Shown here: piece by piece, positions 29,155 through 44,440 of the stretch
Numbering within the stretch: the first letter of the stretch is position 1
How the letters are laid out: the number at the start of each line of letters is the position of its first letter
Origin: an uncultured bacterium
GTDB lineage: Bacteria > Acidobacteriota > Thermoanaerobaculia > Multivoradales > J023
DNA: 64,000 bases
Reading direction: 5' to 3'
Assembly (NCBI GenBank): GCA_937948815.1
Contig: CALFAM010000329.1
Coordinates: 33 to 64,032, forward strand
Notes under the pieces: model-generated
Databases searched by the model: none
What the model saw: the letters and a program-made list of their open reading frames with translations, nothing else
Told to the model about the DNA's origin: nothing
Position numbers and translations under genes: made by a program

Positions 29155-30389
29155 CTGCCCTGACGCGGCGCGTCGCGTAGCGCCTTGGTCAGAGGCGCGG
29201 GAAAGCGCGGCATGACCCGCTCGTCGCCGAGTGCCCGTTCGAGGGCTTCGGCCGCCTCGCGAACAAATACTTCCGCTTCCGGGCAGGGTGCCAGGAGCCG
29301 CCAGGCGATACTGCCGTCGTGGCGCTGTGTCCAGCCTCCGATCACCCGCCCGTGCCACCAGACCGTCGGTCCGGCGTTGCCATTGCGATCGAAGAGCTGG
29401 CTCGTCCACGAGGGCTCGAGAAAGCGCTCTCGCTGTTTGTAGCCCATGATCGTCGGGTCCAAGCCGGGGAGCAGGGCCACCCCCGGAGGTGTCTCGGCCA
29501 TCGGGCTGCGGATGGTGTCGAGGTCCGCGTCGAGCACGAGCTGAGGCGAGGGCCAAGAGCCCACGTACACCTCGCGGACGGCGTGTCCGAGCTGCTCCAA
29601 CGCCTTGCGGACCATCCCTTTGGGCAGGCCGGTCCACCAGACGATGTCCTCGAAGCTGGCTGGGCCAAAGGCGGCCAGGTAGTGGTGGACCAGGTCCTGC
29701 CGTGCGACTTCCGGTGGCGATATGGGCGCCAGGTCCGGTAGCCAGCTCGTGACGGTGGCCCAGTTGTACTTGCCACTCCGCCAGCTACCCTGCTGGTGTG
29801 CGCGCACGGTCGCACCCTCGATTCCCAGCCCACCCATGAGATGGCCGCCGATCACCACGCGGGCCCCGTAGGGCTTGTCCGGCTTGTAGAGGAACGAAGC
29901 GCCGAGGGCGGGCACGGTGGACGCGAGCTCGGTGGCGGTGGCGGGGCCGTCGGTCAGCGCGGCGACGACGGCTTCGCGGGTCTGCTCGAGGACGCTCTCC
30001 GCATCCGGCTCGCGCGCCAGCCCTGCAGAGACCAGGAACCGCGCCTGGTCGATGCGCGCCTTGCGTGCGAGTCGCTCGCGGTAGATCGAGAGCACCGTCG
30101 GAATCGTCGCGGTGGGCAGGACATGCAGCGTACGTCGCATGCAGAGCCAGCGCACCAGGCTCCGATCCGTCTCGAGCGCGCAAGTCATCACCCGTGCGGT
30201 CTCGTCCAGGCTCGCGTGTCCGCATCGGATGTGTGCGGAGAGGTGGACGGTGGCCGGGTCGGTGGCATGGAGCGCGACCAATCGCGAGACCAATGCAACA
30301 GGATCGCTCGCGGCGGGGGTTGGCGGCAGGTGGTGCCGCTCGGCAATGCGGCGCAGCGTCTGCTCGGGGTCGAGGGCGGTGAGGCTCAC
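29151..30389 (-). CDS. Winged-helix DUF1006 / YcaQ-AlkZ family protein
   Basis: GTG 30389 forms a GTGA overlap with the kinase stop. Family blocks LVRWLCMRRTLHVLP and HYLAAFGPASFEDIVWWTGL. The stop overlaps the convergent gene stop (CTAG at 29151-29154). Confidence 0.75.
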   Translation of the reverse strand: MSLTALDPEQTLRRIAERHHLPPTPAASDPVALVSRLVALHATDPATVHLSAHIRCGHASLDETARVMTCALETDRSLVRWLCMRRTLHVLPTATIPTVLSIYRERLARKARIDQARFLVSAGLAREPDAESVLEQTREAVVAALTDGPATATELASTVPALGASFLYKPDKPYGARVVIGGHLMGGLGIEGATVRAHQQGSWRSGKYNWATVTSWLPDLAPISPPEVARQDLVHHYLAAFGPASFEDIVWWTGLPKGMVRKALEQLGHAVREVYVGSWPSPQLVLDADLDTIRSPMAETPPGVALLPGLDPTIMGYKQRERFLEPSWTSQLFDRNGNAGPTVWWHGRVIGGWTQRHDGSIAWRLLAPCPEAEVFVREAAEALERALGDERVMPRFPAPLTKALRDAPRQGS

Positions 30390-33376
30390 GGTCGAAGCTC
30401 GGCGATCTGCTGGTAGCGGTCGCGCTCCGCTGTGTCGTTCCAGGCCCGATAGACCTCGCTCATCCGCACGGCGGCCTCGCGCACCAGGCTGGCGCGCACG
30501 CGATCCCGCTCGGCGATCTGGTCGAAGCCGTCGGCGAGGCGTGCCTCCCACTGTCCACGCACACCCCGCTGGGCGCGAATCGCCGTTTGGATGTGGTCGG
30601 CACGGCGCACGTCCCAATGATCGGCCGGGAGGGACGCATGCAGCACCTCGAGCGCGGCGTCGATGGTCTCTGCGGCTTCGTCCAGGCGGTCGAGCGAGCG
30701 CAGGGTGTCGGCGTGCGCAGCGCGGGCGTTGGCCACATCCGGGTGCGTGGGGCCAAAGCTGTCTTGGTAGAGGGTCGCCGCCTCGGCGAGGAGCTTCGCT
30801 GCGAGCTCGCGTTCACCTTGCATGCGGTGCATGCGAGCCAGGCTCACCTTGCTCTCGGCAACCGCGGGGGCGGCACGACCGAGGGCTTCCGTTCGGTTGG
30901 CGAGGCTGCGCTCGAGGAGCGCGCGGGCCCCTTCCAGGTCGCCACGATCGAGCAGGATGGCGCCGCGGACCGACAGCACTGCGGTGATCCACACATGATC
31001 TTCGTCAACCCGTGTGCGTAGCACCGCGAGTGCCTCGTCCGAGGATGCCAAGGCGTCGTCCAGTCGACCTTGGAGGCGCAGCAGACGGGCCATGTTGTGG
31101 CGGGTCAGCCCGATGTTGGGGTGATTCTCCGGGACGCTCTCGACGAAGATCTCGAGCGCTTTGCGCATGCTGGCCTCCGCCTCGTCCAGCCGGCCCAGCA
31201 CCATGGCTAGCCGCCCGAGGTTGCCATAGATCATCGCCACGAAGGGATGACGCTCACCGTGGATCTTTCGAAAAACGCGCAGGGCTTCGCGATACGACGC
31301 CGCGGCGCCTTCGAAGTCGGCCTGGGCGCGCAGCACGGCTCCCAGGTTGTTGTAGGTAGCCCCGGTTTCGACCGTGTCGCCCAACCTCGGTACGAAGATG
31401 CTCAAGGCTTCGCGGAGTGCCTGCTCGGCATCGTCGTAGCTGTTCTTGTTGCGCAGAATCTCCCCGAGCGTGTTGAGGCTGCTGGCTACCTCCAGGCTCG
31501 AAGGGCTGTGCTGTCGAATCCGCGCCAGCGCTTGCCGGGTGAGCGCCTCGGCCTCGTCCATGTCGCCGCGCATGGAAACGATCGAAGCGAGGTCCGAGAA
31601 GGCGTTGGCCTGTTCGGCATGGTTGCTGGGCGGGTAGACGTCCAAGGCTCGCCGGAGAGACGACTCAGCGGCTTCCAGATCGCCGGTCTCGCGCAGAACC
31701 AGCGCCTGCTGATGCAAAGCTTTGGCGAGGGTGTCGGCGTGATTCTCCTCGTGTGGCGTCAGCAGCGCGATGGCGTCGCGCAGGTGAGCTGCTGCCTGCT
31801 CGGTATCACCGAGCAGGAGGTGGGCAATGCCGAGGTCGCCGAGGGTGGCGCCGACCTCCGGATGGTCGACGCCGAGCTCTTGGCGGCGCAAGGCGAGGGT
31901 GCGATCGAACAACGCCTTCGCCTCGGGATACGAGCCGAGATGTTTGTAGACCGTCGCCAGCGTGTCGTAGAGGCGGGCCTGGGTGTCAGGTTGATCGGCG
32001 AGATCGATTTCGATGCGTTCGCGTTGCGCATCGATCAGATCCTTGACGGGAATACGCTGATCCGGTTCGTTGCGCGGATCCTGGCTCTTGAAGATACCTT
32101 CGAGGAACGCGACCGCTTCTTCGGCGCGCTGCTGCTCCTGAAGGGCGAGGTTGCGCTCATTGCCGAGCCGATGTGCCTGCACGGAGGCGTTGAAGGCGAA
32201 CGCGGTCATCGAGGCCGCGAGCAAGCCGGCGAGGGCCACCGGCACACGGTTGCGGGCCGTGAACTTGCTCGCGCGATAGCCCCAGGTGTTGGGACGCGCC
32301 CGCACCGGCTGGCCCGAGAGATAGCGGCCGATGTCGTCCGACAGGGCTTCCACCGAGGGATAGCGCTGCTCGGGCTCGCTGACCAACGCCTCGAGGGTGA
32401 TCCGGTCGAGATCGCCGATCAGCAGCCGGCGCCGAATGGGGAACGCGGTCTCGGGAAGCGGCGTCTCGCTCGGCAGCCGCGGCGGTCGCGTATCGAGCAG
32501 CCGTTCGATCTCGGCCGGGCTCTTGCCCGTCAGGTCGAAGGGCTTGCTGCCGGTCAGCAGCTCGTAGAGCAAGACACCCAGCGAGTAGATGTCGCTGGCG
32601 ATGGTAATGGTGCGCCCTGCGATTTGCTCCGGGCTGGCGTAGCCCGGCGTCAGCGCGCGGTACAGCGTCTGGGTCGGTGTACCTTCGGCGCCTTCCTGGA
32701 GCAGCTTGGCGAGCCCGAAGTCGAGCAGCTTGGGCTCGCCTTCCTCGTTGACCAGGATGTTCGCCGGCTTGAGGTCACGGTGGACGACCAGGTGGCGATG
32801 GGCGTAGTGTACGCCCGCGCAGACCTTGCGGTAGAGCTTTAGGGTAGCCCGGAGGCCGAGCTGCTGCTGCTGGCAGTGTGCGGTGATCGGCATGCCGCGG
32901 ACCAGCTCCATGACCACGTAGGGCACGCCTTCGTCGCTGGTGCCGCCATCGTAGAGGCGAGCGATGTTGGGGTGGTCGAGCTGCGCGAGGATCTGCCGCT
33001 CGCTGAGCAGCCGACGCTCGAGATTGGGATGCGACAGGCCCTGGAGAAGCTTGACGGCGACCTCGCGCTCGAATTCGTCGTCCGCGCGCTCGGCACGGTA
33101 GACGAAGCTCATTCCACCGATCCCGATGCGTTCGCGCAAACGGTAGGGCCCGAGGTGCTTGCCTTGCCACGGATCGTCTTCGGCGGCCTGGGCCTCGAAG
33201 ATGGGACGGTCGAGGAACGAGTCGTCTCTCGCGCTCGTCAGCAGGCGCTCGAGCTGACTGCGCAGTTTCGGGTCCTCGCGCTCGATTTCGGCCAGAAAGC
33301 CGGGTAGCTCGTCCGCCGACTGTTGAGACGCACGATCCCAGAGGCTTGCCAGGCGCTGCCAGTCTTGAGGTTGCAC
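30386..33376 (-). CDS. Ser/Thr protein kinase with TM segment and a long TPR repeat domain
   Basis: Hanks kinase motifs GIGGMSFVY, VAVKLL, HRDLKPANIL, DFGLAK, YASPE. A TM follows at about aa 385, then many TPR-like repeats. Confidence 0.9.
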   Translation of the reverse strand: MQPQDWQRLASLWDRASQQSADELPGFLAEIEREDPKLRSQLERLLTSARDDSFLDRPIFEAQAAEDDPWQGKHLGPYRLRERIGIGGMSFVYRAERADDEFEREVAVKLLQGLSHPNLERRLLSERQILAQLDHPNIARLYDGGTSDEGVPYVVMELVRGMPITAHCQQQQLGLRATLKLYRKVCAGVHYAHRHLVVHRDLKPANILVNEEGEPKLLDFGLAKLLQEGAEGTPTQTLYRALTPGYASPEQIAGRTITIASDIYSLGVLLYELLTGSKPFDLTGKSPAEIERLLDTRPPRLPSETPLPETAFPIRRRLLIGDLDRITLEALVSEPEQRYPSVEALSDDIGRYLSGQPVRARPNTWGYRASKFTARNRVPVALAGLLAASMTAFAFNASVQAHRLGNERNLALQEQQRAEEAVAFLEGIFKSQDPRNEPDQRIPVKDLIDAQRERIEIDLADQPDTQARLYDTLATVYKHLGSYPEAKALFDRTLALRRQELGVDHPEVGATLGDLGIAHLLLGDTEQAAAHLRDAIALLTPHEENHADTLAKALHQQALVLRETGDLEAAESSLRRALDVYPPSNHAEQANAFSDLASIVSMRGDMDEAEALTRQALARIRQHSPSSLEVASSLNTLGEILRNKNSYDDAEQALREALSIFVPRLGDTVETGATYNNLGAVLRAQADFEGAAASYREALRVFRKIHGERHPFVAMIYGNLGRLAMVLGRLDEAEASMRKALEIFVESVPENHPNIGLTRHNMARLLRLQGRLDDALASSDEALAVLRTRVDEDHVWITAVLSVRGAILLDRGDLEGARALLERSLANRTEALGRAAPAVAESKVSLARMHRMQGERELAAKLLAEAATLYQDSFGPTHPDVANARAAHADTLRSLDRLDEAAETIDAALEVLHASLPADHWDVRRADHIQTAIRAQRGVRGQWEARLADGFDQIAERDRVRASLVREAAVRMSEVYRAWNDTAERDRYQQIAELRP

Positions 33377-33430
33377 GGCTCCTCCTGCTCTCTTGGTGCC
33401 CGTTCGCCCGTCCGCGTGCTCCCGCGTTCG

Positions 33431-34003
33431 CTAGCGAAGCTCGTCGCGTAGCCAGGCGCGTGCCATCTGCCATCGGCGCGACACCGTTGCCTCGCCGACA
33501 CCGACCACACGTGCGATCTCTGGGATGGTCAGTCCGCCGAAGAAGCGAAGCTCGACCGCGCGCGCGGCGACCGCGTCGACCTTGGCCAGCCGCTTCAGTG
33601 CCTCATCGAGCGCCAGCAGGTCGATGCCGCCGCCAGCCGCGCTCAGCTTCTCGGGATCAGCGGTCAAGCGGAAGAAGGCGCCACCCCGTTTCAGCGAGCT
33701 CTTCTGACGGTAGCGGTCGACCAACACCTGGCGTGCGATGCGCGCAGCGAGGGCGTAGAACTGCAAGCGACTCGACCATCGAAGGTGTCGATTGGCGGCA
33801 AACCGGAGGTAGGTCTCGTGAACCAGCTCGGTCGGCTGAATCGTGTCTTGGTGCGAGGCGAATAGCTGGCGCGCTGCGATCTTACGCAACTCGGGATAGA
33901 CCAAGTCGAACAAGCTATCTCCCGCATCCCGATCGCCCTGCTCCCAGCTTTGCAGCAGGCGCGTGACATCGGCCCCGGGAACGGACTCCCCAGTCTCGCG
34001 CAT
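33431..34003 (-). CDS. ECF sigma factor of the kinase-associated type (DVTRLL..W..GD N-terminus)
   Basis: DVTRLLQSWEQGDRDAGDSLFDLVYPELRKIAARQL, a region 2 helix, and the region 4 HTH EIARVVGVGEATVSRRWQMARAWL. Confidence 0.9.
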   Translation of the reverse strand: MRETGESVPGADVTRLLQSWEQGDRDAGDSLFDLVYPELRKIAARQLFASHQDTIQPTELVHETYLRFAANRHLRWSSRLQFYALAARIARQVLVDRYRQKSSLKRGGAFFRLTADPEKLSAAGGGIDLLALDEALKRLAKVDAVAARAVELRFFGGLTIPEIARVVGVGEATVSRRWQMARAWLRDELR

Positions 34004-34137
34004 CGTGTCCCTAGCGTACCGCAGTCCCCCTGCGGGCTCGGAGCAGCACGGGCGACAATGCGCTGTGTGCGGTTGCCAGCCGAGCCACTCGCGGTGTCAG
34101 CCGGCAGCCCGACGGTGCGGCAGGCGGCTGTGGGTCG

Positions 34138-36810
34138 TCAGCCGTGGCGGGCCCGAAGCAGGGCGATGACCTGGCGAATCGACAGCGGCGCCAAGCCCTT
34201 CTTTCGATTTTGATCGCCGATGGCAAATGCTAGACGCCACTGCGCGAAGAGGATCTTGTAGGCGGCGAAGAGGCTGTTGTCGGGATCGTAGATGTTGGTG
34301 GCTTCGGAGGAAACACCATTGAGCTCGAGCACGCTGAGGTTACGCCCGGCGTGGAAGTCTTCCAGGCTCGGTGCGCGGAGGTCGAAGCGGCCGAAGTAGA
34401 AGCCGTCGAGGCTCTGGCTGATGCGCTCGACCTCGGCCTCGAGCGCCGCGGTACGGTGGGCCTCGCCATCCAGGAAGACGGCGCCGAGGCGATGGGTCCC
34501 GATCTCGACCAGGCGCACGATTTCGCCAGCCGCGGGCACTTCGTCGATCCGAGCAGCGAGGCCGGCGAGGTAGGTCGATGCCATGGCCACTGCGCGCGGG
34601 TCGGCCAGAATCAGGCGCTCGATCGTCGACCGGCCGTCGCCGACCACCTCGGGGAGCTGTTTGTCGGTGATGGCGAAGATCCGCCCCTTCTCTTCCTCGG
34701 GCAGCCGGACGTAGAAGACACCCAACTCGGGGCCTTCGACATAGGCCTGCACGATCGCCGCGCCACGCGTCTGGCGGCAGAAGGATTCGATGTCCTCGTG
34801 CGTGCATGCCTTCACCACGCCCGTGCCGCGCTCGCCGACATTGGGTTTCAGGATGATCGGGAAACGGAGGTCGTGCTCGCGCATGAAGGCGTCGACCATG
34901 TCGATCCGGGCGCCGACTGTCGCATCCGCGGGTAGCACCCGAAAGGGCGGCACCCACTGCTTGCCGAGATGGCCGAGGATCGTCGACTTCGACTCGCCCA
35001 CCAGGCCACCACCGGCAGGCAGACCTGGATTGGCGAGGGTGAAGAGGGTTGCGCTCCGGTAGCGCAGGGCGAGCCACGCGATGTAGGCAACCACCGGCGG
35101 ATAGAGACGCCAAATGGGCCAGAACTCCCAGTGGATTTGACGTCGCCACCAGCCGAGGAGCTGGCGTCGACCGCCATAGGTGAGCAGGCGCTGGCCAACA
35201 CCGATGACCAGCCAGATGGTCACCAGGATGCCGACGAATCCGAGCACGGCGTACTGCTCGAATCGCTCGAAGAACGCCAAGAACTGGTCACCCAGCCGCC
35301 GTGAGATCTCGACCACCAGAGGGGTCCAGATGGCGACTGGCAAAAGTAGCCAGAGCGCGTAGACCCGCACGGGCATCCGCACCAGGCCGGCCGACACGTA
35401 GGTGGGAAGCCGGAGACCGGGAATGAACCGGCTGGCGAAGATCACCGCCGGACCCCGCTTGGCGAACCAGCGCTGGCTGCGTGCCAGTGCAGCCGCGCTC
35501 ACCAGGTACTTGAGCGGAGCCCGACTGAGGCTCTTGTGACCGAGTCGGCCGGCTCCATAGAGCAGCATGTCGCCGATGAAGATGCCGCTGGCGCAAGCCA
35601 TGGCCGCGGGTACGAAGCCGATGTTGCCGCGGGCGACGAGAAGGCCGGCAGTGATGCAGGTCAAATCCTCACTGGCCATGGTGGCGAGGGCGAGAAGTAC
35701 GAGGATGACCAGGAGCGTGACGCCTTGGGCGCGAAAGGACGCGAGCACTCGAGGCGCCGCGGCAAGAGCTTGCCGCTCCGGTGTGCTTGCGGCGCGGGCG
35801 ATCGCGGTGCCGGAGACGACCCGTGACACGAACGCCTCGATCGGCGCGGCGAGGGCCTGCGGCTGGCGAAAGACCATGAAATGGTTGGCATCGAAGGTGA
35901 TCAGCTCGCTCTGCGGCACCAGGCGATGGCTCTCTTGCGCCGCCGCGAAGGGCACCAGCATGTCGTGCTCACCATGGACGATCAGGGTCGGCTGGGCCAG
36001 CCGTTCGAGGATCGGTGTCAGCGGACGCTGGTCGGTATCGTAGAAGTTGCGGGCGTAGGGGATATCGAGGGGGAACCCATCGAGCTTGCCGAAGTGTGGG
36101 AGGGCCTGATGGAGCACCGTGATGCCAGCGAGCTGGATACCGTGCAGCGCGTGATTGACGTGGTAGTTGCCCAGCAACTCCAGCTCCTGGACGCCGATCG
36201 AAGAAAGCAGCACCAGCGAGCGAACGCGCTCGGGAAGGCGGTCTGCGAGGTGCAAGGCGACACCGCCTCCCATGCTGAAGCCAACCACGTGTACCGCGTC
36301 GATTCCGAGCAGGTCGAGGAGGGCTGTGGCGTAGGCGGCGTGGGCCTCGATCGAGTAGCTGGCGACCCGACGCGTCGATCCACCGAACCCGGGAAGATCC
36401 GGGGCGATGACGTCGTAGCGCTCCGCGAGCCGTGCACCGAGGGCCTGGAAGTCGTCGGCCGATCCTGGGCTGCCGTGAAGCAGCAGGATGGTCGGCCGAG
36501 GGGTCTCAGCCTGCCAGGCACGGTAGGCCATTCGGGTGGTCCCGCGCGTGCCCGCGGTCGGTGCGACGTCCTCGGAGCCTGTGCCGGTGAGCGAAGCGGG
36601 CAAATCGAGGAAGGCACGGTCAGCCGGCAGCGCCTCGGGTGCCCGCAAACGCACGAAGTGCGAGCTGGCCAGTGCGATGCCGTAGAGCGCGAGGGCGACC
36701 CATAGCCAGCGCTTCCGTTTTGGAGATGGCGAGTGGTCAGGAGCGCGGGTCTCGGGAGCTTGCGAGGCGGTGCGCTTCGCTTCCAGGTCGGGATTCAGAT
36801 CAGCTCGCAC
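34138..36810 (-). CDS. Tri-domain fusion: TM-anchored alpha/beta-hydrolase + DedA/VTT membrane domain + C-terminal ATP-grasp ligase
   Basis: Uninterrupted 890-aa ORF. KRKR-TM anchor. Hydrolase motifs LLLHGSPGS, GFSMGG, HGEHD, ANHF. Multi-TM DedA-like region (GDMLLYGAGRLG, FASRFIPGLRLPTYVSAG). ATP-grasp-like C-terminus (ILKPNVGERGTGV, VQAYVEG, VVGDGRSTIERLI, VLELNGVSSEATNIYD). Confidence 0.85.
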   Translation of the reverse strand: MRADLNPDLEAKRTASQAPETRAPDHSPSPKRKRWLWVALALYGIALASSHFVRLRAPEALPADRAFLDLPASLTGTGSEDVAPTAGTRGTTRMAYRAWQAETPRPTILLLHGSPGSADDFQALGARLAERYDVIAPDLPGFGGSTRRVASYSIEAHAAYATALLDLLGIDAVHVVGFSMGGGVALHLADRLPERVRSLVLLSSIGVQELELLGNYHVNHALHGIQLAGITVLHQALPHFGKLDGFPLDIPYARNFYDTDQRPLTPILERLAQPTLIVHGEHDMLVPFAAAQESHRLVPQSELITFDANHFMVFRQPQALAAPIEAFVSRVVSGTAIARAASTPERQALAAAPRVLASFRAQGVTLLVILVLLALATMASEDLTCITAGLLVARGNIGFVPAAMACASGIFIGDMLLYGAGRLGHKSLSRAPLKYLVSAAALARSQRWFAKRGPAVIFASRFIPGLRLPTYVSAGLVRMPVRVYALWLLLPVAIWTPLVVEISRRLGDQFLAFFERFEQYAVLGFVGILVTIWLVIGVGQRLLTYGGRRQLLGWWRRQIHWEFWPIWRLYPPVVAYIAWLALRYRSATLFTLANPGLPAGGGLVGESKSTILGHLGKQWVPPFRVLPADATVGARIDMVDAFMREHDLRFPIILKPNVGERGTGVVKACTHEDIESFCRQTRGAAIVQAYVEGPELGVFYVRLPEEEKGRIFAITDKQLPEVVGDGRSTIERLILADPRAVAMASTYLAGLAARIDEVPAAGEIVRLVEIGTHRLGAVFLDGEAHRTAALEAEVERISQSLDGFYFGRFDLRAPSLEDFHAGRNLSVLELNGVSSEATNIYDPDNSLFAAYKILFAQWRLAFAIGDQNRKKGLAPLSIRQVIALLRARHG

Positions 36811-37417
36811 ATACGGTCTCGTTCAGCTCGGCGGTCTCGGCCATCTCGGCGTCGCGCTCCGCCTGGGCGCGGTGCGCGGAGGTCGACGGCGCAACGCCGA
36901 AGCCCGCGGGCGGCTCGACACCCCGGTAGCGCATCAGCAGTCCGATCAGCGCATAGTGGTGGACCGTGTGGCTGAGCAAGACCTGTAGCTCGCGCCCGAT
37001 CGACGAAGCAGCCCAACCGTCCGTCGGTGACGCCCAGACCACACCTTCTGCGTGCACGGTCACGGCATTCCCGGCGTCCGCAATATCGATCCGGCCGAGT
37101 TGCTCGATGACTTCGAGCAGCGCGGCTTCGGCAGCCTCACGATCGGTCTCGAGGCGCGGGTCTCGGTCGCGCGCGTCGTAGTCGATCCGCCCTTCGCCGA
37201 GGCCGCGAAGGAAGTTGCGGAAGAAGTCGATCGTGTGGCGCAAGTGGGCGCCAATGCTTCCGATTCCGGTCGAAACCTGGGCGGTGTAGGCGTCGTCGTC
37301 GAGGGCGCGCACCAGGTCGAGGCCCTGATCGAGCACGGCAATGGTGTGAGCGGTGATGGTCAAACCGAAAATCTCCTGGCGATCGGCGCCCTGCGAACGC
37401 GCTTGACGACGCGTCAT
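36800..37417 (-). CDS. DinB-family (four-helix-bundle metalloprotein) protein
   Basis: ATG 37417 forms an ATGA overlap with the GNAT stop. His-triad context IGAHLRHTIDF ... LSHTVHHYALI. The 3' end overlaps the next start by 11 nt. Confidence 0.7.
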   Translation of the reverse strand: MTRRQARSQGADRQEIFGLTITAHTIAVLDQGLDLVRALDDDAYTAQVSTGIGSIGAHLRHTIDFFRNFLRGLGEGRIDYDARDRDPRLETDREAAEAALLEVIEQLGRIDIADAGNAVTVHAEGVVWASPTDGWAASSIGRELQVLLSHTVHHYALIGLLMRYRGVEPPAGFGVAPSTSAHRAQAERDAEMAETAELNETVCAS

Positions 37418-38238
37418 CCAAAAAAGATTCGCACCTGCCGTTCGCTCAAGATGGCGACATCGAGCAGGGCCAAAAAGTCGATGGTCTTGAATCCGCGGTC
37501 GATAGCGGGCCCGCTGCACACGGTCGCGCCATGCCGTAGATACGTTCGAAACAACCTGGGGATTTGGATTTCCTCCAGGGGCACCGGAGCGTCGCTCGCC
37601 GGGCAAGCATAGCCTGGCATCGGGGCCAGACGGATCTCAGGATGGAGGTGGTCGTGGGCTGCGAGCCACTGCATGGTGCCCCAGCCCTCATGGGGGTTCT
37701 GGCTGGTCAGTGAACAGCAGCCAAAGAGAAAACGCAGGCGGTTGGCGGCCACGTAGTGTGCCAGGCCCTTCCAGAGAAGGAACAGAACGATGGTGTTCCG
37801 GTGACCGTTGGCAATGCAGGCGCGTCCGAGCTCGACCGCTTGCTCGGTGACGGACTGTGGCATGTCGGCGAAGTCGAAGACGGTCGCGGAATAGAGCCCT
37901 TCCCGCTCACTGGCGCGGGCCGCGGGTTGCAGTCGGTAGGTCCCGACCACCTCACCTGTCGAGCGATCTTCCACCATCAGGTGGTGGCATGCACTGTCGA
38001 AGCGGTCGTGGTCGCGTCCGGTTTCGAACGATGTTGCGAGCCCTTCGCCGAGCTCCAGGTTGAAGACCTCGAAGCGTAGGCGCAACACGGCGTCGACATC
38101 TTCCGAGCTGTGCGCGAAGCGGGCGACATAGCGGCCCTTCTCGATGACCGCGTCTGGGAGCTCAGCGGCCGAGAGCTCGCATTCTCCTGGGGCTTGGGGA
38201 TCGAGGCCTTCTGGGCTGAGATCGATGCCTGGCTTCAT
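37414..38238 (-). CDS. GNAT N-acyltransferase of the OlsB / N-acyl amino acid synthase type (Acetyltransf_5-like)
   Basis: ARFAHSSEDVDAVLRLRFEVFNLELGEG....GRDHDRFDSACHHLMVEDRSTGEVVGTYRLQ matches the family signature (E..A.RLRY.VF..E.G......D.D.FD..C.HL.V.......VVGTYRL). Confidence 0.8.
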   Translation of the reverse strand: MKPGIDLSPEGLDPQAPGECELSAAELPDAVIEKGRYVARFAHSSEDVDAVLRLRFEVFNLELGEGLATSFETGRDHDRFDSACHHLMVEDRSTGEVVGTYRLQPAARASEREGLYSATVFDFADMPQSVTEQAVELGRACIANGHRNTIVLFLLWKGLAHYVAANRLRFLFGCCSLTSQNPHEGWGTMQWLAAHDHLHPEIRLAPMPGYACPASDAPVPLEEIQIPRLFRTYLRHGATVCSGPAIDRGFKTIDFLALLDVAILSERQVRIFFG

Positions 38239-38310
38239 TGCATAGCCTCTTGGGCGAGGTCGGCCTGGGCGGATCCGTGCGCGCTCAGCGAGGTCGAACG
38301 TGAGGCGTCA

Positions 38311-38343
38311 ACACGTGGCGCGAACACGTGACGCGAACACGGG
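38311..38343. repeat. 13-bp direct repeats with CACGTG cores: ACACGTGGCGCGA / ACACGTGACGCGA / ACACGGG
   Basis: Read directly, 73-105 nt upstream of the GNAT start. On the minus strand the repeats abut a TTGACG hexamer (38311-38306). Confidence 0.8.
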
Positions 38344-38385
38344 GGGCAAGGCAGCACCGAAGCGAGTGCCGCCCTGGACTCGTCC

Positions 38386-39150
38386 TCAGAGCCGCTCGAT
38401 GGCGCTCGGATCGGCACGCAGGATCCACTGATCGCCGACCTGGACGACTTCGCCGGTGATCGCCACGGTCTCTGCGACCCATCCGAGCACCTCCTGGTTG
38501 ATCGTGCTCCCGTCTGCTCCCACCAGCAGAAGGTACGTGCCCACGCCATCCTGGTTTCGCTGTACGAAGAGCGGAGGAATGCCGCCGCGGATACACAGCG
38601 AAGCGCAGGCGCGATGAGGTTTCGTCGACCCGGGCTTCATGACGCCGAGGTAGCACTTGCTGTCGACGATCTCGCCACGCAGCGTCATCGTACCGTGAGC
38701 AACCTCGTCTGGGCCACGCTGCACGGCGCCCGCGACTGCCTCGACACTGCCGTCGACGACCTCCAGCATGGTCTGGTCATCTCGGTAGATCAGGGTGCCT
38801 TCCAGTTGGACACGCTGTCCCACGACGTCCGCGACCATCGGACCTGCACCGAATTTGCCCGCGGCGACCAGGTAATAGCGTGAGGAGCCACCGCCGGGCC
38901 GGTCGACCAGCAGCAGTGGGTGCGGGTCGACGACCACCGTACCTGCGAAGGTGCGGACGTTGCCGAATTCGAAGAAGGCGACGTCGAACGTGTGTTGGGC
39001 GGCAGCGAGCACGACCGCCAGAAGCGGTGCCAGCACGAGCAAGCCGATGACACCCTTGCGGACGTGGGTCGCGATCGGCCGCGGCGCGGTCGGTAGGTAG
39101 CCGATGTAGAAGGGGTCCTGAGACGCGTTGGTTGGAATCTGCTCAGCCAT
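38386..39150 (-). CDS. Membrane-anchored hypothetical protein with a C-X14-C-X3-C motif
   Basis: ATG 39150 overlaps the upstream stop by 8 nt (ATGGCTGA). TM GVIGLLVLAPLLAVVLAAA. The extracytoplasmic part contains KCYLGVMKPGSTKPHRACASLCIRGG. Confidence 0.65.
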   Translation of the reverse strand: MAEQIPTNASQDPFYIGYLPTAPRPIATHVRKGVIGLLVLAPLLAVVLAAAQHTFDVAFFEFGNVRTFAGTVVVDPHPLLLVDRPGGGSSRYYLVAAGKFGAGPMVADVVGQRVQLEGTLIYRDDQTMLEVVDGSVEAVAGAVQRGPDEVAHGTMTLRGEIVDSKCYLGVMKPGSTKPHRACASLCIRGGIPPLFVQRNQDGVGTYLLLVGADGSTINQEVLGWVAETVAITGEVVQVGDQWILRADPSAIERL

Positions 39151-40210
39151 GACGGCCTCCCGCGCTTTCCGTGCCGTGAATCGGCGCCGGCTGGACGGCG
39201 GTCCCCGGCGGGTTCGGGCGTGGATCAATGAAGACACGTCCGTTTGCGACCCGCACGTTGAAGGTGGCTACCTTCTCCGTGAAGGGTGCTGGTGCCCTGC
39301 CATTCGCCGGCTCGTACTGGAAGCCGTGCCAGGGACAGACCACACACCCGTCGACGATCTTGCCCTCGCCCAGCGGGCCGTTCTGGTGCTTGCACACACT
39401 GGAGAGCGCAGAGATCTTGCCGTCATACTGGTAGACCGCGACCCGCTCGTCTGCCACGGACACCAGCTTGGCGCGCTTCTCGGGAATCTCGGATACGGCG
39501 CAGACCTCGAGAAAGCCGTCCGTGCTCCGTGGCCCGCGGAGGGGCTGATCTCCCGCTCGCTCCCGCCAGCCGGTCACCAGGTGGAGCGCCAGCAGCCAGA
39601 CCATGCCAGCACCCAGCAAGGCGACCAGCACGGGATGGGTCTCGACCTGCAAGACCCCGAGCGCCACGTGCATCACGATCGCCGCGTAGGCGACGTAGAC
39701 CATCATGTGCAGAGATTTCCACACCGGTGGGCTGAGGTTGGCCAGCCAGAAGTCGTGGCTGGTCGCCGCCATCAGGAAGAGGATGGCCAGGGCGAGCAAG
39801 CCGAGAGGCTGAAAGGGAAACTGGGCGAGGCTGTCGTACCGGCTGTTGCCGAGAAGTACGTTGACCAGCGGATTGAGCGAGCCGAGAACATGAAACTGCA
39901 CCGTGGCGAAGCCGCCGTGGGCCAGCGCCAGTACGAACATGGCGATGCCGAGGTGCCGCCGGTTGTACAGCAGAGGCAAGAAGCGGCGGTCCAGTCGGCA
40001 CAAAGGGCCGATTGACAGGATGATGTGGAGCAGGAGAAGCGCCCCCGTGCCGAAGGCTCGGATCAGCGCACTCTCGACGGTGATCTCTGGCTGAAGCGCC
40101 ATGCTTCCGGCTACGAAGGCAGCGATGTAGAGAACGATGCCCCCGACCAGCGTCAGGTCGTAGACTTTTTTCTGGCGATTCCAGCCGACGGCCTGGTACG
40201 ACTCGCTCAT
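39143..40210 (-). CDS. Ferric-reductase-type (MsrQ/YedZ-like) six-TM domain fused to a C-terminal Rieske [2Fe-2S] domain
   Basis: Six hydrophobic spans with conserved His (LLLHIILSIGP, RRHLGIAMFVLALAHG, AAIVMHVALG). Rieske motif CKH-X16-CPWH. Confidence 0.85.
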   Translation of the reverse strand: MSESYQAVGWNRQKKVYDLTLVGGIVLYIAAFVAGSMALQPEITVESALIRAFGTGALLLLHIILSIGPLCRLDRRFLPLLYNRRHLGIAMFVLALAHGGFATVQFHVLGSLNPLVNVLLGNSRYDSLAQFPFQPLGLLALAILFLMAATSHDFWLANLSPPVWKSLHMMVYVAYAAIVMHVALGVLQVETHPVLVALLGAGMVWLLALHLVTGWRERAGDQPLRGPRSTDGFLEVCAVSEIPEKRAKLVSVADERVAVYQYDGKISALSSVCKHQNGPLGEGKIVDGCVVCPWHGFQYEPANGRAPAPFTEKVATFNVRVANGRVFIDPRPNPPGTAVQPAPIHGTESAGGRHG

Positions 40211-40731
40211 GACGGGTTCTCCCCGGGCGCGCCGTCCTCGTTGGCGGGCGGTTCGACCGACGAACCCGCAGGGATCGTCAATGCGCCCTGATCGAGGACT
40301 TCCTGGTGCCCCAGGCTGTAGAGGATGATGCGGCCATTGGTGGCCTCGGAAGGGAGAGGGTAAGCAGTGTTGCGCAGCGGACCGAGCAGCCTGGCGCCGG
40401 ATGGCAGGCCGTCCGCCGCCGCCGCATCCGCGGAAGGCGTGCCTGACAGCCAGTAGATCAGTGTGTCGGGCGTGCGAACCGCGGCGCTCGGGGTCACGGC
40501 GAGCAGCCGGCCGCCGTTCGACGTGTCGAAGACGCGGACGGAGGCGTCGACGGTCGAAAAGAGGTCCGGGCGTTCGACCAGCAGCTGGCCGAGGCTCTCG
40601 GACTCCACTGCCTCAGAGGCGCGACTCGAGTCGCCGGGGCGCGCGCCGATGGCCAGCGCGACGGCCACGGGCAGCAGCACGGCCAACATGACGAACATGT
40701 GGAAATGGCGGCGTCGAAGCGGCGCGATCAT
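40207..40731 (-). CDS. Membrane-anchored hypothetical protein
   Basis: ATGA overlaps at both ends (40728-40731 and 40207-40210). One N-terminal TM (FVMLAVLLPVAVALAIG). Confidence 0.6.
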   Translation of the reverse strand: MIAPLRRRHFHMFVMLAVLLPVAVALAIGARPGDSSRASEAVESESLGQLLVERPDLFSTVDASVRVFDTSNGGRLLAVTPSAAVRTPDTLIYWLSGTPSADAAAADGLPSGARLLGPLRNTAYPLPSEATNGRIILYSLGHQEVLDQGALTIPAGSSVEPPANEDGAPGENPS

Positions 40732-40973
40732 GCGTTGTCTCCGGGAGAGGGTGTCGCGCGCAGCCACCGCACGAGCAAGAACGGCCACAAGGCAGCCGCG
40801 CCCGGCACGATCAGAATGCGAAATCCCCACGTCGCCTCGGCAGCGGACGGATCGATCGCGCGCGCGCCGCGCCATGCGAATGCGAGCGCGAACAGCAGGC
40901 CGATCGCCAGGTAGATGGTGGTGAAGCTCACCAGCCCGGTTGCCAGGCTGGTCGCGAGCGAGGAATCTGTCAT
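40728..40973 (-). CDS. Small two-TM membrane protein (81 aa)
   Basis: GGAGA 6 nt before ATG 40973. Two hydrophobic spans. First gene of the coupled operon. Confidence 0.5.
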   Translation of the reverse strand: MTDSSLATSLATGLVSFTTIYLAIGLLFALAFAWRGARAIDPSAAEATWGFRILIVPGAAALWPFLLVRWLRATPSPGDNA

Positions 40974-41030
40974 CCGCGTCTCCGTCGGGTCATTGGGCGT
41001 GGCTTCGTGCTGCGCCGTTGCATTTTCACT

Positions 41031-41040
41031 ATTGCGCAAT
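41031..41040. promoter_or_regulatory. Perfect 10-bp palindrome ATTGCGCAAT
   Basis: Read directly, 58 nt upstream of the start at 40973, in the 450-bp divergent intergenic region. Confidence 0.25.
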
Positions 41041-41425
41041 CGCCGTCCGAGGTTACAGGAGGGTATTCGGCTCCGCTGGCGAGACGGATCGAATCTGCAA
41101 GAATCGGGCGTGCCGGACCGCCCTTCCGGCACCCTCTGCGAGTCACGGGACGAGTCCCCGTCGATTGGGCGCTCGGTGGAGCACGGCTGGCGTCTGAGTC
41201 TCCTGCTTCGTCCAGCTCTGCGATCGACTCATACACTCCTCGCCACGCCACAGCCCGAATCACCAAGAGGCTTGCGAAGGACCGTGGTAGCTTTTGGACT
41301 CATATGTGCAGACTTTAAGAGGCTCCACCGAGCAGTGCGCCCATTCAACATCCAGGATCGTTGGTCAGAGTTGAGTAAGCTCCGGTGCGACCCGACACAC
41401 ACCCTTCGGTGCAAGGAGGATTGCA

Positions 41426-41992
41426 ATGTCCCGTAGTTCCCGAACTGCCGGCCTGATCGCTGCGGCGCTGCTCGCCAGCGCAGCGGCTGTGCAGGCCCAG
41501 GCCCCAGCGGCAACCGAGTTCCGGCCCGCGACTCCCGAAGAAGCTCAGGTACGGTCGATCGCCCCCGGTGAGCGCGCTGTTCCTTCCGCCCTCGCCTATC
41601 AGGCACGCTGTGACGAGAAACCAATGCGTACCGCGACCGTCTCGCTCAACTGGACCGCGACGTCAGGCGAGGGGGTCGTCGGCCAGCGAGTCGATATCAG
41701 CAAGTTTCCCGAGGGCTTCGCCACCGGGCGTTTCGAGACCACCGGAGCAATCGATGCGGCGCAGTCGACGGCTGCCGTTGCTGGACCGGAGCCGGGTCTC
41801 TCGTACTACTGGCGTGTCTGGACCATGACCGCGGATGGCGGCATTACCAGTCGCGTCGAGCGCTTCGACGTCCCCACCTGCCCCGCGGACTCGACGGGTC
41901 TCGACCCGAATGACTATCGCCCGACGGGTGCCGCTGCGGCGGGTGCCGGCTCGGACAAGGCGAACACCGACAACCCGGCCTCTTCCCGCTAG
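41426..41992 (+). CDS. Secreted hypothetical protein
   Basis: AAGGAGG before the ATG. Signal peptide MSRSSRTAGLIAAALLASAAAVQAQA. The C-terminus is low-complexity. Confidence 0.65.
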   Translation: MSRSSRTAGLIAAALLASAAAVQAQAPAATEFRPATPEEAQVRSIAPGERAVPSALAYQARCDEKPMRTATVSLNWTATSGEGVVGQRVDISKFPEGFATGRFETTGAIDAAQSTAAVAGPEPGLSYYWRVWTMTADGGITSRVERFDVPTCPADSTGLDPNDYRPTGAAAAGAGSDKANTDNPASSR

Positions 41993-42022
41993 TCCGGGCT
42001 TCGGACGGAAAGGAATCTCAAC

Positions 42023-44440
42023 GTGTTGAATGCTCATGAGCTTTCGCAGCCGAAGGGCGCTCGTGCCTCGGTCTGCACGATTCTCTCCATTGCGGCACTG
42101 GCGCTCCTCACCAGCCCAGTCGTCGCGCAGGTGACGTGGGAAGACGTCAATCCCGACTTCACCGATACCCACGGTATCGACCCGGATCGCGCCAGTGGTG
42201 GTCGCGTCAATCGCCTGGCCATCGAAGCCGGCAACAACTCGGTCATGTACGCCGCGAGTGAATGGGGCGGCATGTACAAAAGCACGGACGCTGGTCTGAC
42301 CTGGGGACGCCTCGACGGCCATCTGCCAGTCGCGGCCTGGGACGTCGAGATCGATCCGGGCAATCCTTCGAAGGTCTACGCCACGTCCTTCTTCGATGGC
42401 AAGGCGGCCTCGGTCTCGGGTATCAACGTCAGCTCCGATGGCGGTGCCACCTGGACCCACCCGGCCTCGGCCAATCCGCCCGCCGGCTTCTGTCAGAACC
42501 TGCGCGACGAGACCGAGCTGACTGCCTTCGGCATCTCGGTGCACCCAACGAACAACGCGATCGTCTACATCGGTACGAGCTGCGGTCTCGCCAAGAGCAC
42601 GGACGCGGGCGCGACGTGGGAGTACATCGATCCCTCGCTGACGCCGGGTACCGCGACGCGGGTGTGGGATGTCATCGCCCGACCGGGCGGCGTGGTCCAC
42701 GTTTGCGGCAATGATGGCTACCTGCGTTCGGACAACGGCGGAACCTCGTGGGTCCAGGGCACCGGCCTGCCAGGCGGGCGTTGCAACCTCGCGATGTCGC
42801 CGGACGAGGACTACGTCCTCCTCGCGGCGGTCGGTACCTCGATCTACGAGACCACCAACGCCAACTCCGCGACACCCATGTGGACCCAGACGCGCCAGAA
42901 CCTCTCGCCCCAGGGCCGCGTGCCCTTCGTGGAGACCAACCAGCGATCTGACAATGGCGCTGACAACGTCTTCGATCTCTGGTTCGGCGATGTGTCACTC
43001 TGGCGTGTGGGCTGCACCACGCCGACTCCGCCGGCGCCGGGCGGCGCTCCGCGCTGCGGTACTGCCAATGTGCCGGCATGGGCGGGGCCCTTCACCCGCA
43101 CGGTCGGCGGTCATGACGACATGGGCGACGTCATCTTCGACTCCGAGGCTGCCAACGATGCCTGCCCGGTCTTGATGTCGTCCGACGGTGGCGTCTACTT
43201 CAACGCCGACTCCACGGCGGATTGCCACAACCCGAACTGGGATGAGCCGAATGTCACGCCGCATGGTCTCTGGCCGTTCTCGATGTCGGGCAACGACCGC
43301 CCGGGCGCGGCTGAGGATCTCTACTTCGGCAACCAGGACAACGGCCTGTTCGGAACGATCGACATCTCCGATCCCTCGCCAACCTGGCACAACGAGCTAT
43401 GCTGCGACGGTTTCGATACCGCGGGTGACGATGATGGTGCGATCTTCTCGATCTGCTGCTTCGGCGGCGGCGGGCGCTCGACCCAGCTCGTGCGCACGCA
43501 GCCCGGTTTCGTGAATGGTGCGACCGTTACCGCCGGCAACTACCCGCCCGGCGGCTTGCTGCCGACCTTCAACATTCCGGACTCGATCGTCCGCTACAAC
43601 GATTCGAGCTATGTGTTGATCACCCGTGATTGCACGGTGGGTGCTGGTGGCTGTCTGGGTGCCGATGGCGGGGTCTTCATCACCGACGACATCGATGCCG
43701 GATCGGTCACCTGGACCGAGCTCGGCAATGCCACCGAGCCGCCGACCAACCAGGTCTGCGGCGTCCAGGTTGGCGTCAATGGCGGCGGTACCCCGACCTT
43801 CTACGTACAGACCGGCGACTGCGACCAGCAGGGTGCCGCGGACCGTATGTTCCGCTACACGGGCACGGCGCCGGGCAATGCCTGGACGGAGATCACCTTG
43901 CCCGCGGGTGGCTTCGGCTTCCTGGCGGCCAACCCGTCGAATCCGAATCGTTTGATCGCTTCGGGCCAGACCGGCACCGACGCGGCGATGTTCTCGTCGA
44001 CCGATGGCGGCACCACCTGGACCGCCATGCCCGCGCTCGATGCCCTGATGAACGGTGGCGGCGACTTCCCGATGCGGAACTTCCGTGGACCGTCGCGTTT
44101 CACCGGCTTCAATGGCTACTGGCAGCCGAGTTTCGCGGCGTTCGATCCGGACACCCCCACCATCTTGGCCGGCGGCCAGGACTCGGGTGTGTTCATGAGC
44201 ACGGATGACGGCGCGAATTGGACCTTGGTCTCGGATCCGCGCACGTCGGATACCTCTGGTACACCGCACATTCCGCGCCCGCGCTACGGCTACTTCGACA
44301 CCGAGGGCGGCGTCACGACGTTCTACATCGGCAGCCAGGGCCGCGGCATCTGGCGCGGTACGGTCGGCGTGGTGGTGGACATCTTCGCGGACAACTTCGA
44401 GTCTGGCGATACCTCGGCCTGGTCGGCCACCATTCCGTAA
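42023..44440 (+). CDS. Secreted BNR/Asp-box repeat beta-propeller protein (sialidase / GH74 / Sortilin-Vps10-like fold)
   Basis: Six SxDxGxTW Asp-boxes (STDAGLTW, SSDGGATW, STDAGATW, SDNGGTSW, STDGGTTW, STDDGANW). Signal-like N-terminus. GTG start. Confidence 0.8.
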   Translation: MLNAHELSQPKGARASVCTILSIAALALLTSPVVAQVTWEDVNPDFTDTHGIDPDRASGGRVNRLAIEAGNNSVMYAASEWGGMYKSTDAGLTWGRLDGHLPVAAWDVEIDPGNPSKVYATSFFDGKAASVSGINVSSDGGATWTHPASANPPAGFCQNLRDETELTAFGISVHPTNNAIVYIGTSCGLAKSTDAGATWEYIDPSLTPGTATRVWDVIARPGGVVHVCGNDGYLRSDNGGTSWVQGTGLPGGRCNLAMSPDEDYVLLAAVGTSIYETTNANSATPMWTQTRQNLSPQGRVPFVETNQRSDNGADNVFDLWFGDVSLWRVGCTTPTPPAPGGAPRCGTANVPAWAGPFTRTVGGHDDMGDVIFDSEAANDACPVLMSSDGGVYFNADSTADCHNPNWDEPNVTPHGLWPFSMSGNDRPGAAEDLYFGNQDNGLFGTIDISDPSPTWHNELCCDGFDTAGDDDGAIFSICCFGGGGRSTQLVRTQPGFVNGATVTAGNYPPGGLLPTFNIPDSIVRYNDSSYVLITRDCTVGAGGCLGADGGVFITDDIDAGSVTWTELGNATEPPTNQVCGVQVGVNGGGTPTFYVQTGDCDQQGAADRMFRYTGTAPGNAWTEITLPAGGFGFLAANPSNPNRLIASGQTGTDAAMFSSTDGGTTWTAMPALDALMNGGGDFPMRNFRGPSRFTGFNGYWQPSFAAFDPDTPTILAGGQDSGVFMSTDDGANWTLVSDPRTSDTSGTPHIPRPRYGYFDTEGGVTTFYIGSQGRGIWRGTVGVVVDIFADNFESGDTSAWSATIP

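Follow-up and report, generated by a model that had tools for sequence, protein, structure and literature searches.

A widespread four-gene cassette around a ferric reductase-Rieske fusion protein, a candidate transmembrane electron-transfer module of bacteria

The subject of this report is a cassette of four genes, here called g1 to g4, in a 64,000-nucleotide (nt) stretch of contig CALFAM010000329.1 (assembly GCA_937948815.1, positions 33 to 64,032) from an uncultured bacterium of the Acidobacteriota; the whole stretch is called the window, and coordinates refer to it unless another locus is named. All four genes lie on the minus strand and are read in the order g1 (40728-40973, 81 residues), g2 (40207-40731, 174 residues), g3 (39143-40210, 355 residues) and g4 (38386-39150, 254 residues), where g3 is predicted to encode a ferric-reductase-type six-helix di-heme domain followed by a C-terminal Rieske [2Fe-2S] domain. 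The original prediction, made from the letters of the window, had described four coupled open reading frames (ORFs) with two ATGA overlaps and one of 8 nt, and the junctions are exactly of this kind: ATGA between g1 and g2 (40728-40731), ATGA again between g2 and g3 (40207-40210), which gives the g2 ORF such an overlap on each side, and ATGGCTGA, 8 nt, between g3 and g4 (39143-39150). Every start codon of the cassette has GGAG or GGAGG within 15 bases upstream, and public protein collections hold the same four products with identical boundaries. The predicted start of the locus, 38386, was correct, while its predicted end, 41040, lies 67 nt beyond the ATG of g1 at 40973. The g1 frame is open upstream of this ATG as far as a GTG at 41132; we prefer the 81-residue form because it is preceded by GGAG and is the form called publicly. 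Membrane spans were likewise counted as first proposed, with two for g1, one for g2 and one for g4 in hydropathy profiles, and six long helices for g3 in the AlphaFold2 (AF2) model.

In keeping with the fusion that had been proposed, g3 matches both the Ferric_reduct family PF01794 and the Rieske family PF00355 of Pfam above their cut-offs. The PF01794 match (48.0 bits against a cut-off of 28, E 1.6e-12, residues 57-178) assigns g3, at the level of its sequence, to the ferric reductase domain (FRD) superfamily. The six transmembrane (TM) helices, at residues 17-215 (39566-40162, minus strand), were delimited from invariant columns, the number of lysines and arginines (K/R) per loop and the helices of the AF2 model; this model, with a predicted local distance difference test score (pLDDT) of 83 and a predicted template modelling score (pTM) of 0.78, shows a beta-rich domain after the six long helices. 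The conserved His pairs noticed originally are H86/H98 in TM3 and H168/H181 in TM5, which are invariant in alignments of 39 and of 67 homologues and are spaced by 12 and 13 residues, respectively; the heme-ligand pairs of NOX2, H101/H115 and H209/H222, are 14 and 13 residues apart (PMC3591440). In FRDs, four His in TM3 and TM5 hold an inner and an outer heme, and only two or three of them are kept in STEAP and in short bacterial forms such as YedZ (PMC3591440). Because all four are present in g3, we regard it as resembling the two-heme "long form" of NOX and FRE. Invariant residues were found in all three periplasmic and both cytoplasmic loops of the 67 homologues. None of the Pfam families of cytochrome b matches g3, and after TM6 Pfam yields Rieske families alone, with no FAD-binding or NAD(P)H-binding dehydrogenase domain. 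Four further His are also conserved, namely H62 (TM2), H107 (outer loop), H152 (inner loop) and H210 (TM6), all invariant in the 39-sequence set, with H210 at 90% or more in the 67-sequence set; H62 and H210, located toward the cytoplasmic half, may point to an additional site for a cofactor or a metal.

The Rieske domain of g3 occupies residues 234-317 (39260-39511, minus strand), as delimited by Pfam (PF00355, 62.3 bits against a cut-off of 20.3, E 4e-17) and by the ligands C273, H275, C292 and H295, which are invariant in both alignments and form the motif CKH-X16-CPWH as originally read. Its sequence, CKHQNGPL...CPWHGF, does not have the disulfide Cys pair of the bc1/b6f type (CTHLGC...CPCHGS), and because this pair is absent the midpoint potential is likely low. 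We consider the domain likely to be a low-potential cluster of the ferredoxin type. Its best sequence matches in PDB are the ferredoxins of carbazole, biphenyl and naphthalene dioxygenases, with profile E values down to 4e-11, and among the best 50 of 106 Foldseek matches the domain superimposes on CarAc, BphA3 and the naphthalene dioxygenase ferredoxin with TM-scores of 0.82-0.87 and a root-mean-square deviation of about 2 A.

When K/R were averaged per segment over the 39 homologues, the segments assigned to the inside had 3.4 (N-terminus), 4.3 (loop 2), 1.3 (loop 4) and 3.4 (segment after TM6), 12.4 in total, against 1.3 for the outside loops 1, 3 and 5 together. A twin-arginine motif was found in none of the 39 g3 and 67 g4 sequences (pattern [ST]RRxF[LVI] in g3), and the loop before TM6 reads QVETHP. 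Because six spans precede the domain, the bias is of the positive-inside type and the twin-arginine translocation (Tat) motif is missing, the Rieske domain is predicted to be cytoplasmic, on the side where the original prediction had placed it. Dual Sec/Tat membrane proteins with a Rieske domain, of the Sco2149 type, place this domain in the periplasm, cross the membrane an odd number of times and bear a twin-arginine motif ahead of their last TM helix (PMC5449189), and g3, with its six spans, no RR motif and a predicted cytoplasmic Rieske domain, differs in each of these features. Export of the g3 Rieske domain by a Tat or dual Sec/Tat route was considered and rejected on the number of spans, the lack of an RR motif and the strong positive-inside bias.

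The product of g4 has a cytoplasmic N-terminal tail (FYxGYLP), one TM span and two periplasmic beta barrels resembling the oligonucleotide/oligosaccharide-binding (OB) fold. Its hydropathy span lies at residues 33-51, and in the AF2 model (pLDDT 89) a TM helix at 24-51 is followed by two barrels of five strands, both of which include the helix that characterises OB folds. Natural g3::g4 fusion proteins of 600-619 residues exist in several lineages (about 9 of 150 representatives of the g4 family are fused to g3), and in them the TM helix of g4 follows directly after the Rieske domain with no span between. Because a single TM helix separates the two in these fusions, the barrels of g4 are placed in the periplasm, opposite to the Rieske domain. 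The g4 family is large: in a library clustered at 50% identity, 2580 representatives match at E ≤ 0.001. In Pfam and NCBIfam g4 has no match. Its most conserved part is a motif at residues 165-193 (38572-38658, minus strand), K-C-x2-G-x-M-x-P-x5-H-x2-C-A-x2-C-x2-GG-x-PP, in which K165, C166, G169, M171, P173, H179, C182, A183, C186 and G190 are conserved at 100% in 225 diverse homologues; in the AF2 secondary structure it lies in a helix-loop-helix that is inserted in the second barrel, after strand one and before strand two. Of the Cys motif originally given as C-X14-C-X3-C, the C-X3-C part holds and the first spacing has to be corrected to C-X15-C. Sets of Cys, His and Met are typical of soft-metal sites, Cu(I) foremost, and the copper site of Sco proteins consists of CxxxC plus a His. 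We regard the motif as a candidate acceptor or metal site.

The two upstream products are smaller. In g1, recognized from its ORF, start codon and GGAG, hydrophobic spans lie at residues 14-32 and 53-71, and the conserved motif is GFRLLILPG..ALWP, with no conserved Cys; its relatives often end in PP.E.N.HR, and their sole recurrent His, in the C-terminal NPHR tail, is absent from the protein of the window. The product of g2 has a conserved cytoplasmic N-terminus (MIxPLRxxHR), a span at 12-30 and a periplasmic beta-rich domain, and evolves fast, with a mean column identity of 28%; the short motifs PD.LLYW and LYS.AH are kept, no Cys is conserved, and a word search found only 3 homologues. Neither g1 nor g2 has a match in Pfam or NCBIfam, and for g2 a PDB profile search gave nothing below E=0.01, with immunoglobulin-V-like matches that were weak and non-significant. 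The possibility that g2 is a Tat substrate, suggested by "RRRHF" in the window and "HRRAF" in Terriglobales, was rejected on inspection of the family, where L5, R6 and H9 are the residues conserved and the members from Bacteroidota read RKRHR.

Conservation of the cassette was counted in 80 loci, obtained in a scan of one genome per species, whose g3 relatives show 52-68% identity. These loci come from Acidobacteriota, Planctomycetota, Verrucomicrobiota, Kiritimatiellia, several orders of Bacteroidota, Rhodothermales, Gammaproteobacteria, one cyanobacterium, Eisenbacteria and others, so that the cassette is spread over at least eight bacterial phyla, and g3 homologues of different phyla show 52-70% identity over the segment that aligns best. 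Among the carriers are two cultured bacteria, Sulfidibacter corallicola M133 (L078) and Splendidivirga corallicola BMA10 (L077). The order g1-g2-g3-g4 recurs throughout: g4 lies directly downstream of g3 in 78 of the 80 loci, and a g1 relative was found by tblastn directly upstream in 73. The fast-evolving g2 was detected by tblastn in 36 loci, and 59 loci have a g2-like ORF that stops at the g3 start, in most of them with the same N-terminal motif. Because this gene order recurs in 80 loci of many phyla, we regard the cassette as a unit rather than a chance juxtaposition; together with the g3::g4 fusions, these counts establish that the neighbours named in the original prediction are kept with g3 in other genomes, and the pairing of g3 with g4 is obligate.

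Several genes recur near the cassette in the 80 loci. At the head of the operon, a short-chain dehydrogenase/reductase (SDR) gene is present in 27 loci, and genes for TANGO2/NRDE, DoxX-like and periplasmic YHS proteins occur nearby in 23, 21 and 19 loci, respectively. Two kinds of gene that abut the cassette encode enzymes that themselves carry a Rieske domain, one fused to a Glu_synthase domain, which binds flavin mononucleotide (FMN), in a protein of about 540 residues, and the other to a thiamine pyrophosphate (TPP) enzyme in a protein of about 650 residues; each was found in 17 loci. These Rieske-fused enzymes adjoin the cassette in at least six phylum-level groups and were seen in Planctomycetota, Bacteroidota, Kiritimatiellia, Thermoanaerobaculia, Multivoradales, a gammaproteobacterium and a cyanobacterium (examples in our locus numbering are L003 1938-5520 and L081 7406-9019). 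Neither the neighbours in the window nor those in the related loci yielded a molybdoenzyme gene. In Terriglobales, YHS and DoxX-like genes are inserted between g4 and the DinB gene described below, and in one 5.2-Mb genome (L083, 2629-6631 and 8516-8992) the cassette stands beside a COX1/COX3/COX4/COX2 operon and a gene for a periplasmic YHS-domain protein.

Downstream of g4 in the window, after 147 nt, lies a gene for an OlsB-like N-acyltransferase of the GNAT type (37414-38238, minus strand; PF13444, 1.9e-28), which scores 141 bits with the OlsB models of NCBIfam, under their cut-offs. A gene for a DinB-family protein follows (36800-37417, minus strand; PF12867 and PF05163), whose ATG overlaps the stop of the OlsB-like gene as ATGA, and then, with a GTG start overlapping the DinB end by 11 nt, a gene for an 890-residue protein in which Pfam recognizes an alpha/beta-hydrolase, a DedA/VTT membrane domain and an ATP-grasp-like C-terminus (34138-36810, minus strand). 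The same coupled block, at 34138-38238 on the minus strand of the window, was also seen in L081 (11873-16779) and L083 (11828-16523), and some OlsB-like blocks add TANGO2/NRDE, a PlsC/OlsA-like acyltransferase or BKACE. The OlsB-like gene is within 6 kb of the cassette in 30 of the 80 loci, while DinB is present in 30 and the hydrolase-DedA gene in 32, in each case across phyla; in 10 loci a PlsC/OlsA-like acyltransferase, so labelled from its NHxxxxD and FPEGT motifs only, comes after the OlsB-like gene. The block looks like an aminolipid module. Directly downstream of the hydrolase-DedA gene in the window, the minus strand at 30386-34003 carries genes for an extracytoplasmic function (ECF) sigma factor (PF07638), a 232-residue ORF without a family and a 996-residue Ser/Thr kinase with tetratricopeptide repeats, and ECF sigma genes occur near the cassette in 9 other loci. 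On the other side, two plus-strand genes divergent from g1 (41426-44440) encode a family-less secreted protein of 188 residues and an 805-residue protein of the BNR/sortilin type (F510_1955-like glycosyl hydrolase); these two are not conserved beside the cassette elsewhere.

A possible regulatory signal was found in 10 Terriglobales-type loci, where GTAACC(T)-N16-TCTGA is located 33-55 nt upstream of the SDR gene heading the SDR-g1-g2-g3-g4 operon (L010:4551, L011:4551, L015:884, L016:724, L018:4552, L019:4551, L022:4537, L028:4553, L035:1478 and L068:4537). The pattern has 11 matches in 1.8 Mb against 0.77 expected, its flanks are not conserved, and it resembles the consensus of sigma-E/AlgU, which hints at ECF control, of the envelope-stress kind, in Terriglobales. 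The motif was not found in the window, and a scan of 33900-41500 for promoters and terminators gave nothing exceeding the expectation from shuffled sequences. A riboswitch or other structured RNA upstream was considered and dropped, as Rfam gave nothing at E ≤ 1 for 33000-42500 and nothing at the gathering score for 11 related loci. In the gap between g4 and the OlsB-like gene (about 38290-38373, minus strand), a 12-bp hairpin stands a few bases past the g4 stop with no T-run following, and past the hairpin are three tandem CACGTGTT-like words (CACGTGTTCGCG, CACGTGTTGACG, TCACGTTCGA), which are possibly an operator for the downstream block. As a whole, this 147-nt gap folds no better than shuffles (z = -0.07).

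On this basis we propose, as a reading with about an even chance of being right, that the four products form one inner-membrane complex through which electrons would flow outward from the Rieske cluster via two hemes to a periplasmic site on g4. A cytoplasmic donor would hand single electrons to the dioxygenase-ferredoxin-type Rieske domain of g3, from which they would pass to the inner heme b (H86/H168) and then to the outer heme b (H98/H181) of a six-helix bundle like that of NOX and FRE. The g4 product would begin in the cytoplasm by the Rieske domain, cross the membrane once and hold its OB-like barrels over the periplasmic face, where its invariant Cys3-His-Met motif would serve as the electron exit in a site formed with g2; g2 and g1 would complete or stabilise the complex. 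The outward direction is the one we infer because both the membrane potential and an input of low potential favour it, and the loading of the cofactors, the acceptor and the physiological role belong equally to what we deduce. In loci other than the window, the adjacent Rieske-fused FMN (glutamate-synthase-type) and TPP enzymes may be the donors, and we take them as the best candidates because the closest structural relatives of the g3 Rieske domain carry out Rieske-to-Rieske transfer. For the exit chemistry, a bound soft metal ion would be the most likely solution (e.g. Cu(II) to Cu(I), or Fe) and a Cys-based centre a less likely one; a metal on g4 is favoured, with low confidence, because of the analogy to FRE and STEAP, the ligand set and the YHS neighbours, and we rate metal-reductase chemistry at the g4 site, taken as a claim of its own, as rather unlikely. 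The role of the complex is probably the maintenance or defence of the cell envelope.

A number of observations weigh against this proposal. The His pair in TM3 of g3 is spaced by 12 residues against 14 in NOX2. A PDB profile search with the helical part of g3 gave no match, and in the Foldseek search the best 50 of 106 matches (E ≤ 0.001) all cover the Rieske domain, with NOX, STEAP and MsrQ unseen among them; the structural kinship to NOX, STEAP and MsrQ is thus drawn from the Pfam profile and the His pattern. For g4, no relative of known function was found: the PDB profile search gave nothing below E=0.01, and Foldseek yielded only generic OB-fold proteins (SSB, RPA-like, eIF5A), the best with E=1.5e-3 and none at or below 0.001. 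The g4 motif could be structural, like the zinc sites that occur inserted in some OB folds, where Met is not a usual ligand. The window contains no donor reductase, as queries with Rieske+Glu_synthase, Rieske+TPP, SDR, TANGO2, DoxX and YHS proteins match only the g3 Rieske domain there, and neither a metal transporter nor a metallochaperone is encoded in it. Finally, a metal-reductase role would leave the recurring aminolipid, DinB, TANGO2 and DedA neighbours unexplained, and the link of the aminolipid genes to the cassette is accounted for neither by the proposed model nor by any of the explanations weighed below.

The Rieske-fused FMN and TPP enzymes, adjoining the cassette in 17 loci each, and the single locus beside a cytochrome oxidase operon would also suit a different explanation, in which g3 is the anchor and wire of a respiratory dehydrogenase that takes electrons from these flavoenzymes through the hemes to (mena)quinone near the periplasmic side, in the manner of di-heme succinate:menaquinone reductases, and g1, g2 and g4 have structural or assembly roles. 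According to its title, a 2025 paper reports that MsrQ, which is related, has ubiquinone as an unexpected cofactor (PMC12525009). There is also precedent for menaquinone reduction by di-heme anchors (PMC12663545). However, the flavoenzymes are absent from the window and from most loci, and the explanation has no place for the invariant periplasmic Cys3-His-Met motif and the g3::g4 fusions; we consider it unlikely, at a level where it should still be kept in mind. A NOX-like oxygen reductase, whose outer heme would make periplasmic superoxide while the Rieske domain takes the place of the FAD/NADPH module, would be consistent with the presence of all four heme His as in the NOX/FRE long forms and with host taxa that are mostly aerobes. 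In addition, two invariant residues of g3, R51 where TM2 reaches the outer side and H107 directly following TM3, may resemble the Arg/His pair at the oxygen site of NOX. An O2 reductase would require no partner, whereas the cassette has three conserved accessory subunits and an invariant ligand-like motif in g4, and the Pfam match cannot tell NOX from other FRDs, so that we give this reading little credence.

The signs of envelope control, i.e. the sigma-E/AlgU-type motif at the operon head in Terriglobales, the ECF sigma genes near 9 loci and in the window, and the envelope-lipid genes in the neighbourhood, can be read in favour of an MsrQ-like system, for which MsrPQ sets a precedent (PMC5449189): in a response to envelope stress, g4 would act as a periplasmic repair enzyme or reductase on disulfides or on oxidised groups of proteins or lipids. 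We hold this to be quite improbable, as neither an MsrP nor a molybdoenzyme gene is present, the NCBIfam MsrQ model NF003831 gives 35 bits against a cut-off of 130, one-electron hemes driving two-electron thiol chemistry would be unusual, and g4 is unlike any known reductase. It can also be asked whether electrons flow inward, from a periplasmic or quinol donor through the hemes to the Rieske domain and on to cytoplasmic Rieske-dependent enzymes, since a ferredoxin-type Rieske protein normally donates to other Rieske proteins and Rieske-fused enzymes adjoin the cassette. From established bioenergetics, applied here by inference, inward movement of electrons would oppose the membrane potential and a low-potential Rieske cluster would be a poor acceptor from quinol, and we regard this direction as very improbable indeed.

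The proposed outward-directed complex can be placed among known systems as follows. With the long forms of NOX, FRE and FRO, g3 has in common the six-helix PF01794 domain, four His in TM3 and TM5, an N-in/C-in arrangement and a cytoplasmic C-terminal input module; the input of the known enzymes is a dehydrogenase with flavin adenine dinucleotide (FAD) and NADPH, whereas that of g3 would be a one-electron Rieske [2Fe-2S] cluster, and the cassette adds three dedicated accessory membrane subunits. With MsrPQ (YedYZ) it has in common an FRD-family membrane hemoprotein serving a periplasmic partner encoded alongside, but YedZ keeps three of the four His (PMC3591440) while g3 keeps all four, and MsrP is a soluble, Tat-exported molybdoenzyme while g4 is anchored in the membrane, has OB-like folds in tandem and lacks a molybdenum domain. 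For the metal-site chemistry that we propose, the nearest parallel is STEAP, whose FRD-related membrane domain reduces Fe(III) or Cu(II) on the outer side, although STEAP proteins are eukaryotic and have one heme, FAD and an N-terminal F420-type NADPH domain, with no Rieske domain and no accessory subunits. The Rieske ferredoxins of dioxygenases (CarAc, BphF/BphA3 and that of naphthalene dioxygenase) agree with the g3 domain in sequence, fold, the CxH...CxxH ligands and the lack of a disulfide Cys pair, but these are small soluble carriers between reductase and oxygenase, whereas the g3 domain is tethered to a di-heme domain with no oxygenase nearby. In the bc1/b6f complexes, too, a Rieske centre works alongside a membrane cytochrome b with two hemes; their cytochrome b fold is not homologous to g3, and their Rieske protein is of high potential, disulfide-bearing, Tat-exported and located on the outer side.

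The combination of an FRD with a Rieske domain has been recorded in a catalogue of FRD architectures (Zhang et al. 2013, model M4), where Rieske domains joined to bacterial FRDs are described as "electron transfer agents", and such bacterial variations were described there as generally not persistent (PMC3591440). The entry gives no function, partners or distribution (PMC3591440), and, contrary to the stated lack of persistence, the g1-g4 cassette spans at least eight phyla. In our literature searches no paper characterising the cassette was found, the sole mention being this catalogue (PMC3591440), which agrees with the original statement that no characterised function was known for the arrangement or its accessory proteins.

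From the comparison of sequences, the cassette appears to work like a transmembrane wire of the NOX/STEAP/MsrQ type with a new input module and new subunits. To our knowledge, FRD enzymes (NOX, FRE, STEAP and MsrQ) are the main known single-electron route from the cytoplasm outward, and all characterised members start from a flavin or quinol; the cassette would instead have an iron-sulfur input and three private subunits, and it is widespread yet unnamed. Whether the replacement of the flavin/NADPH module by a Rieske cluster, the tandem-OB acceptor, the Rieske-fused FMN/TPP donors in some lineages and an ECF-controlled envelope module with aminolipid and DedA genes together define an unrecognised cross-phylum class of prokaryotic transmembrane reductase is a question to which we would give a yes with somewhat less than even confidence. 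Solving the cassette would give four gene families a role in one step, and it could bring to light a new redox chemistry of the periplasm, for instance the reduction of metals, the repair of the envelope or the formation of superoxide, in abundant bacteria of soil and sea.

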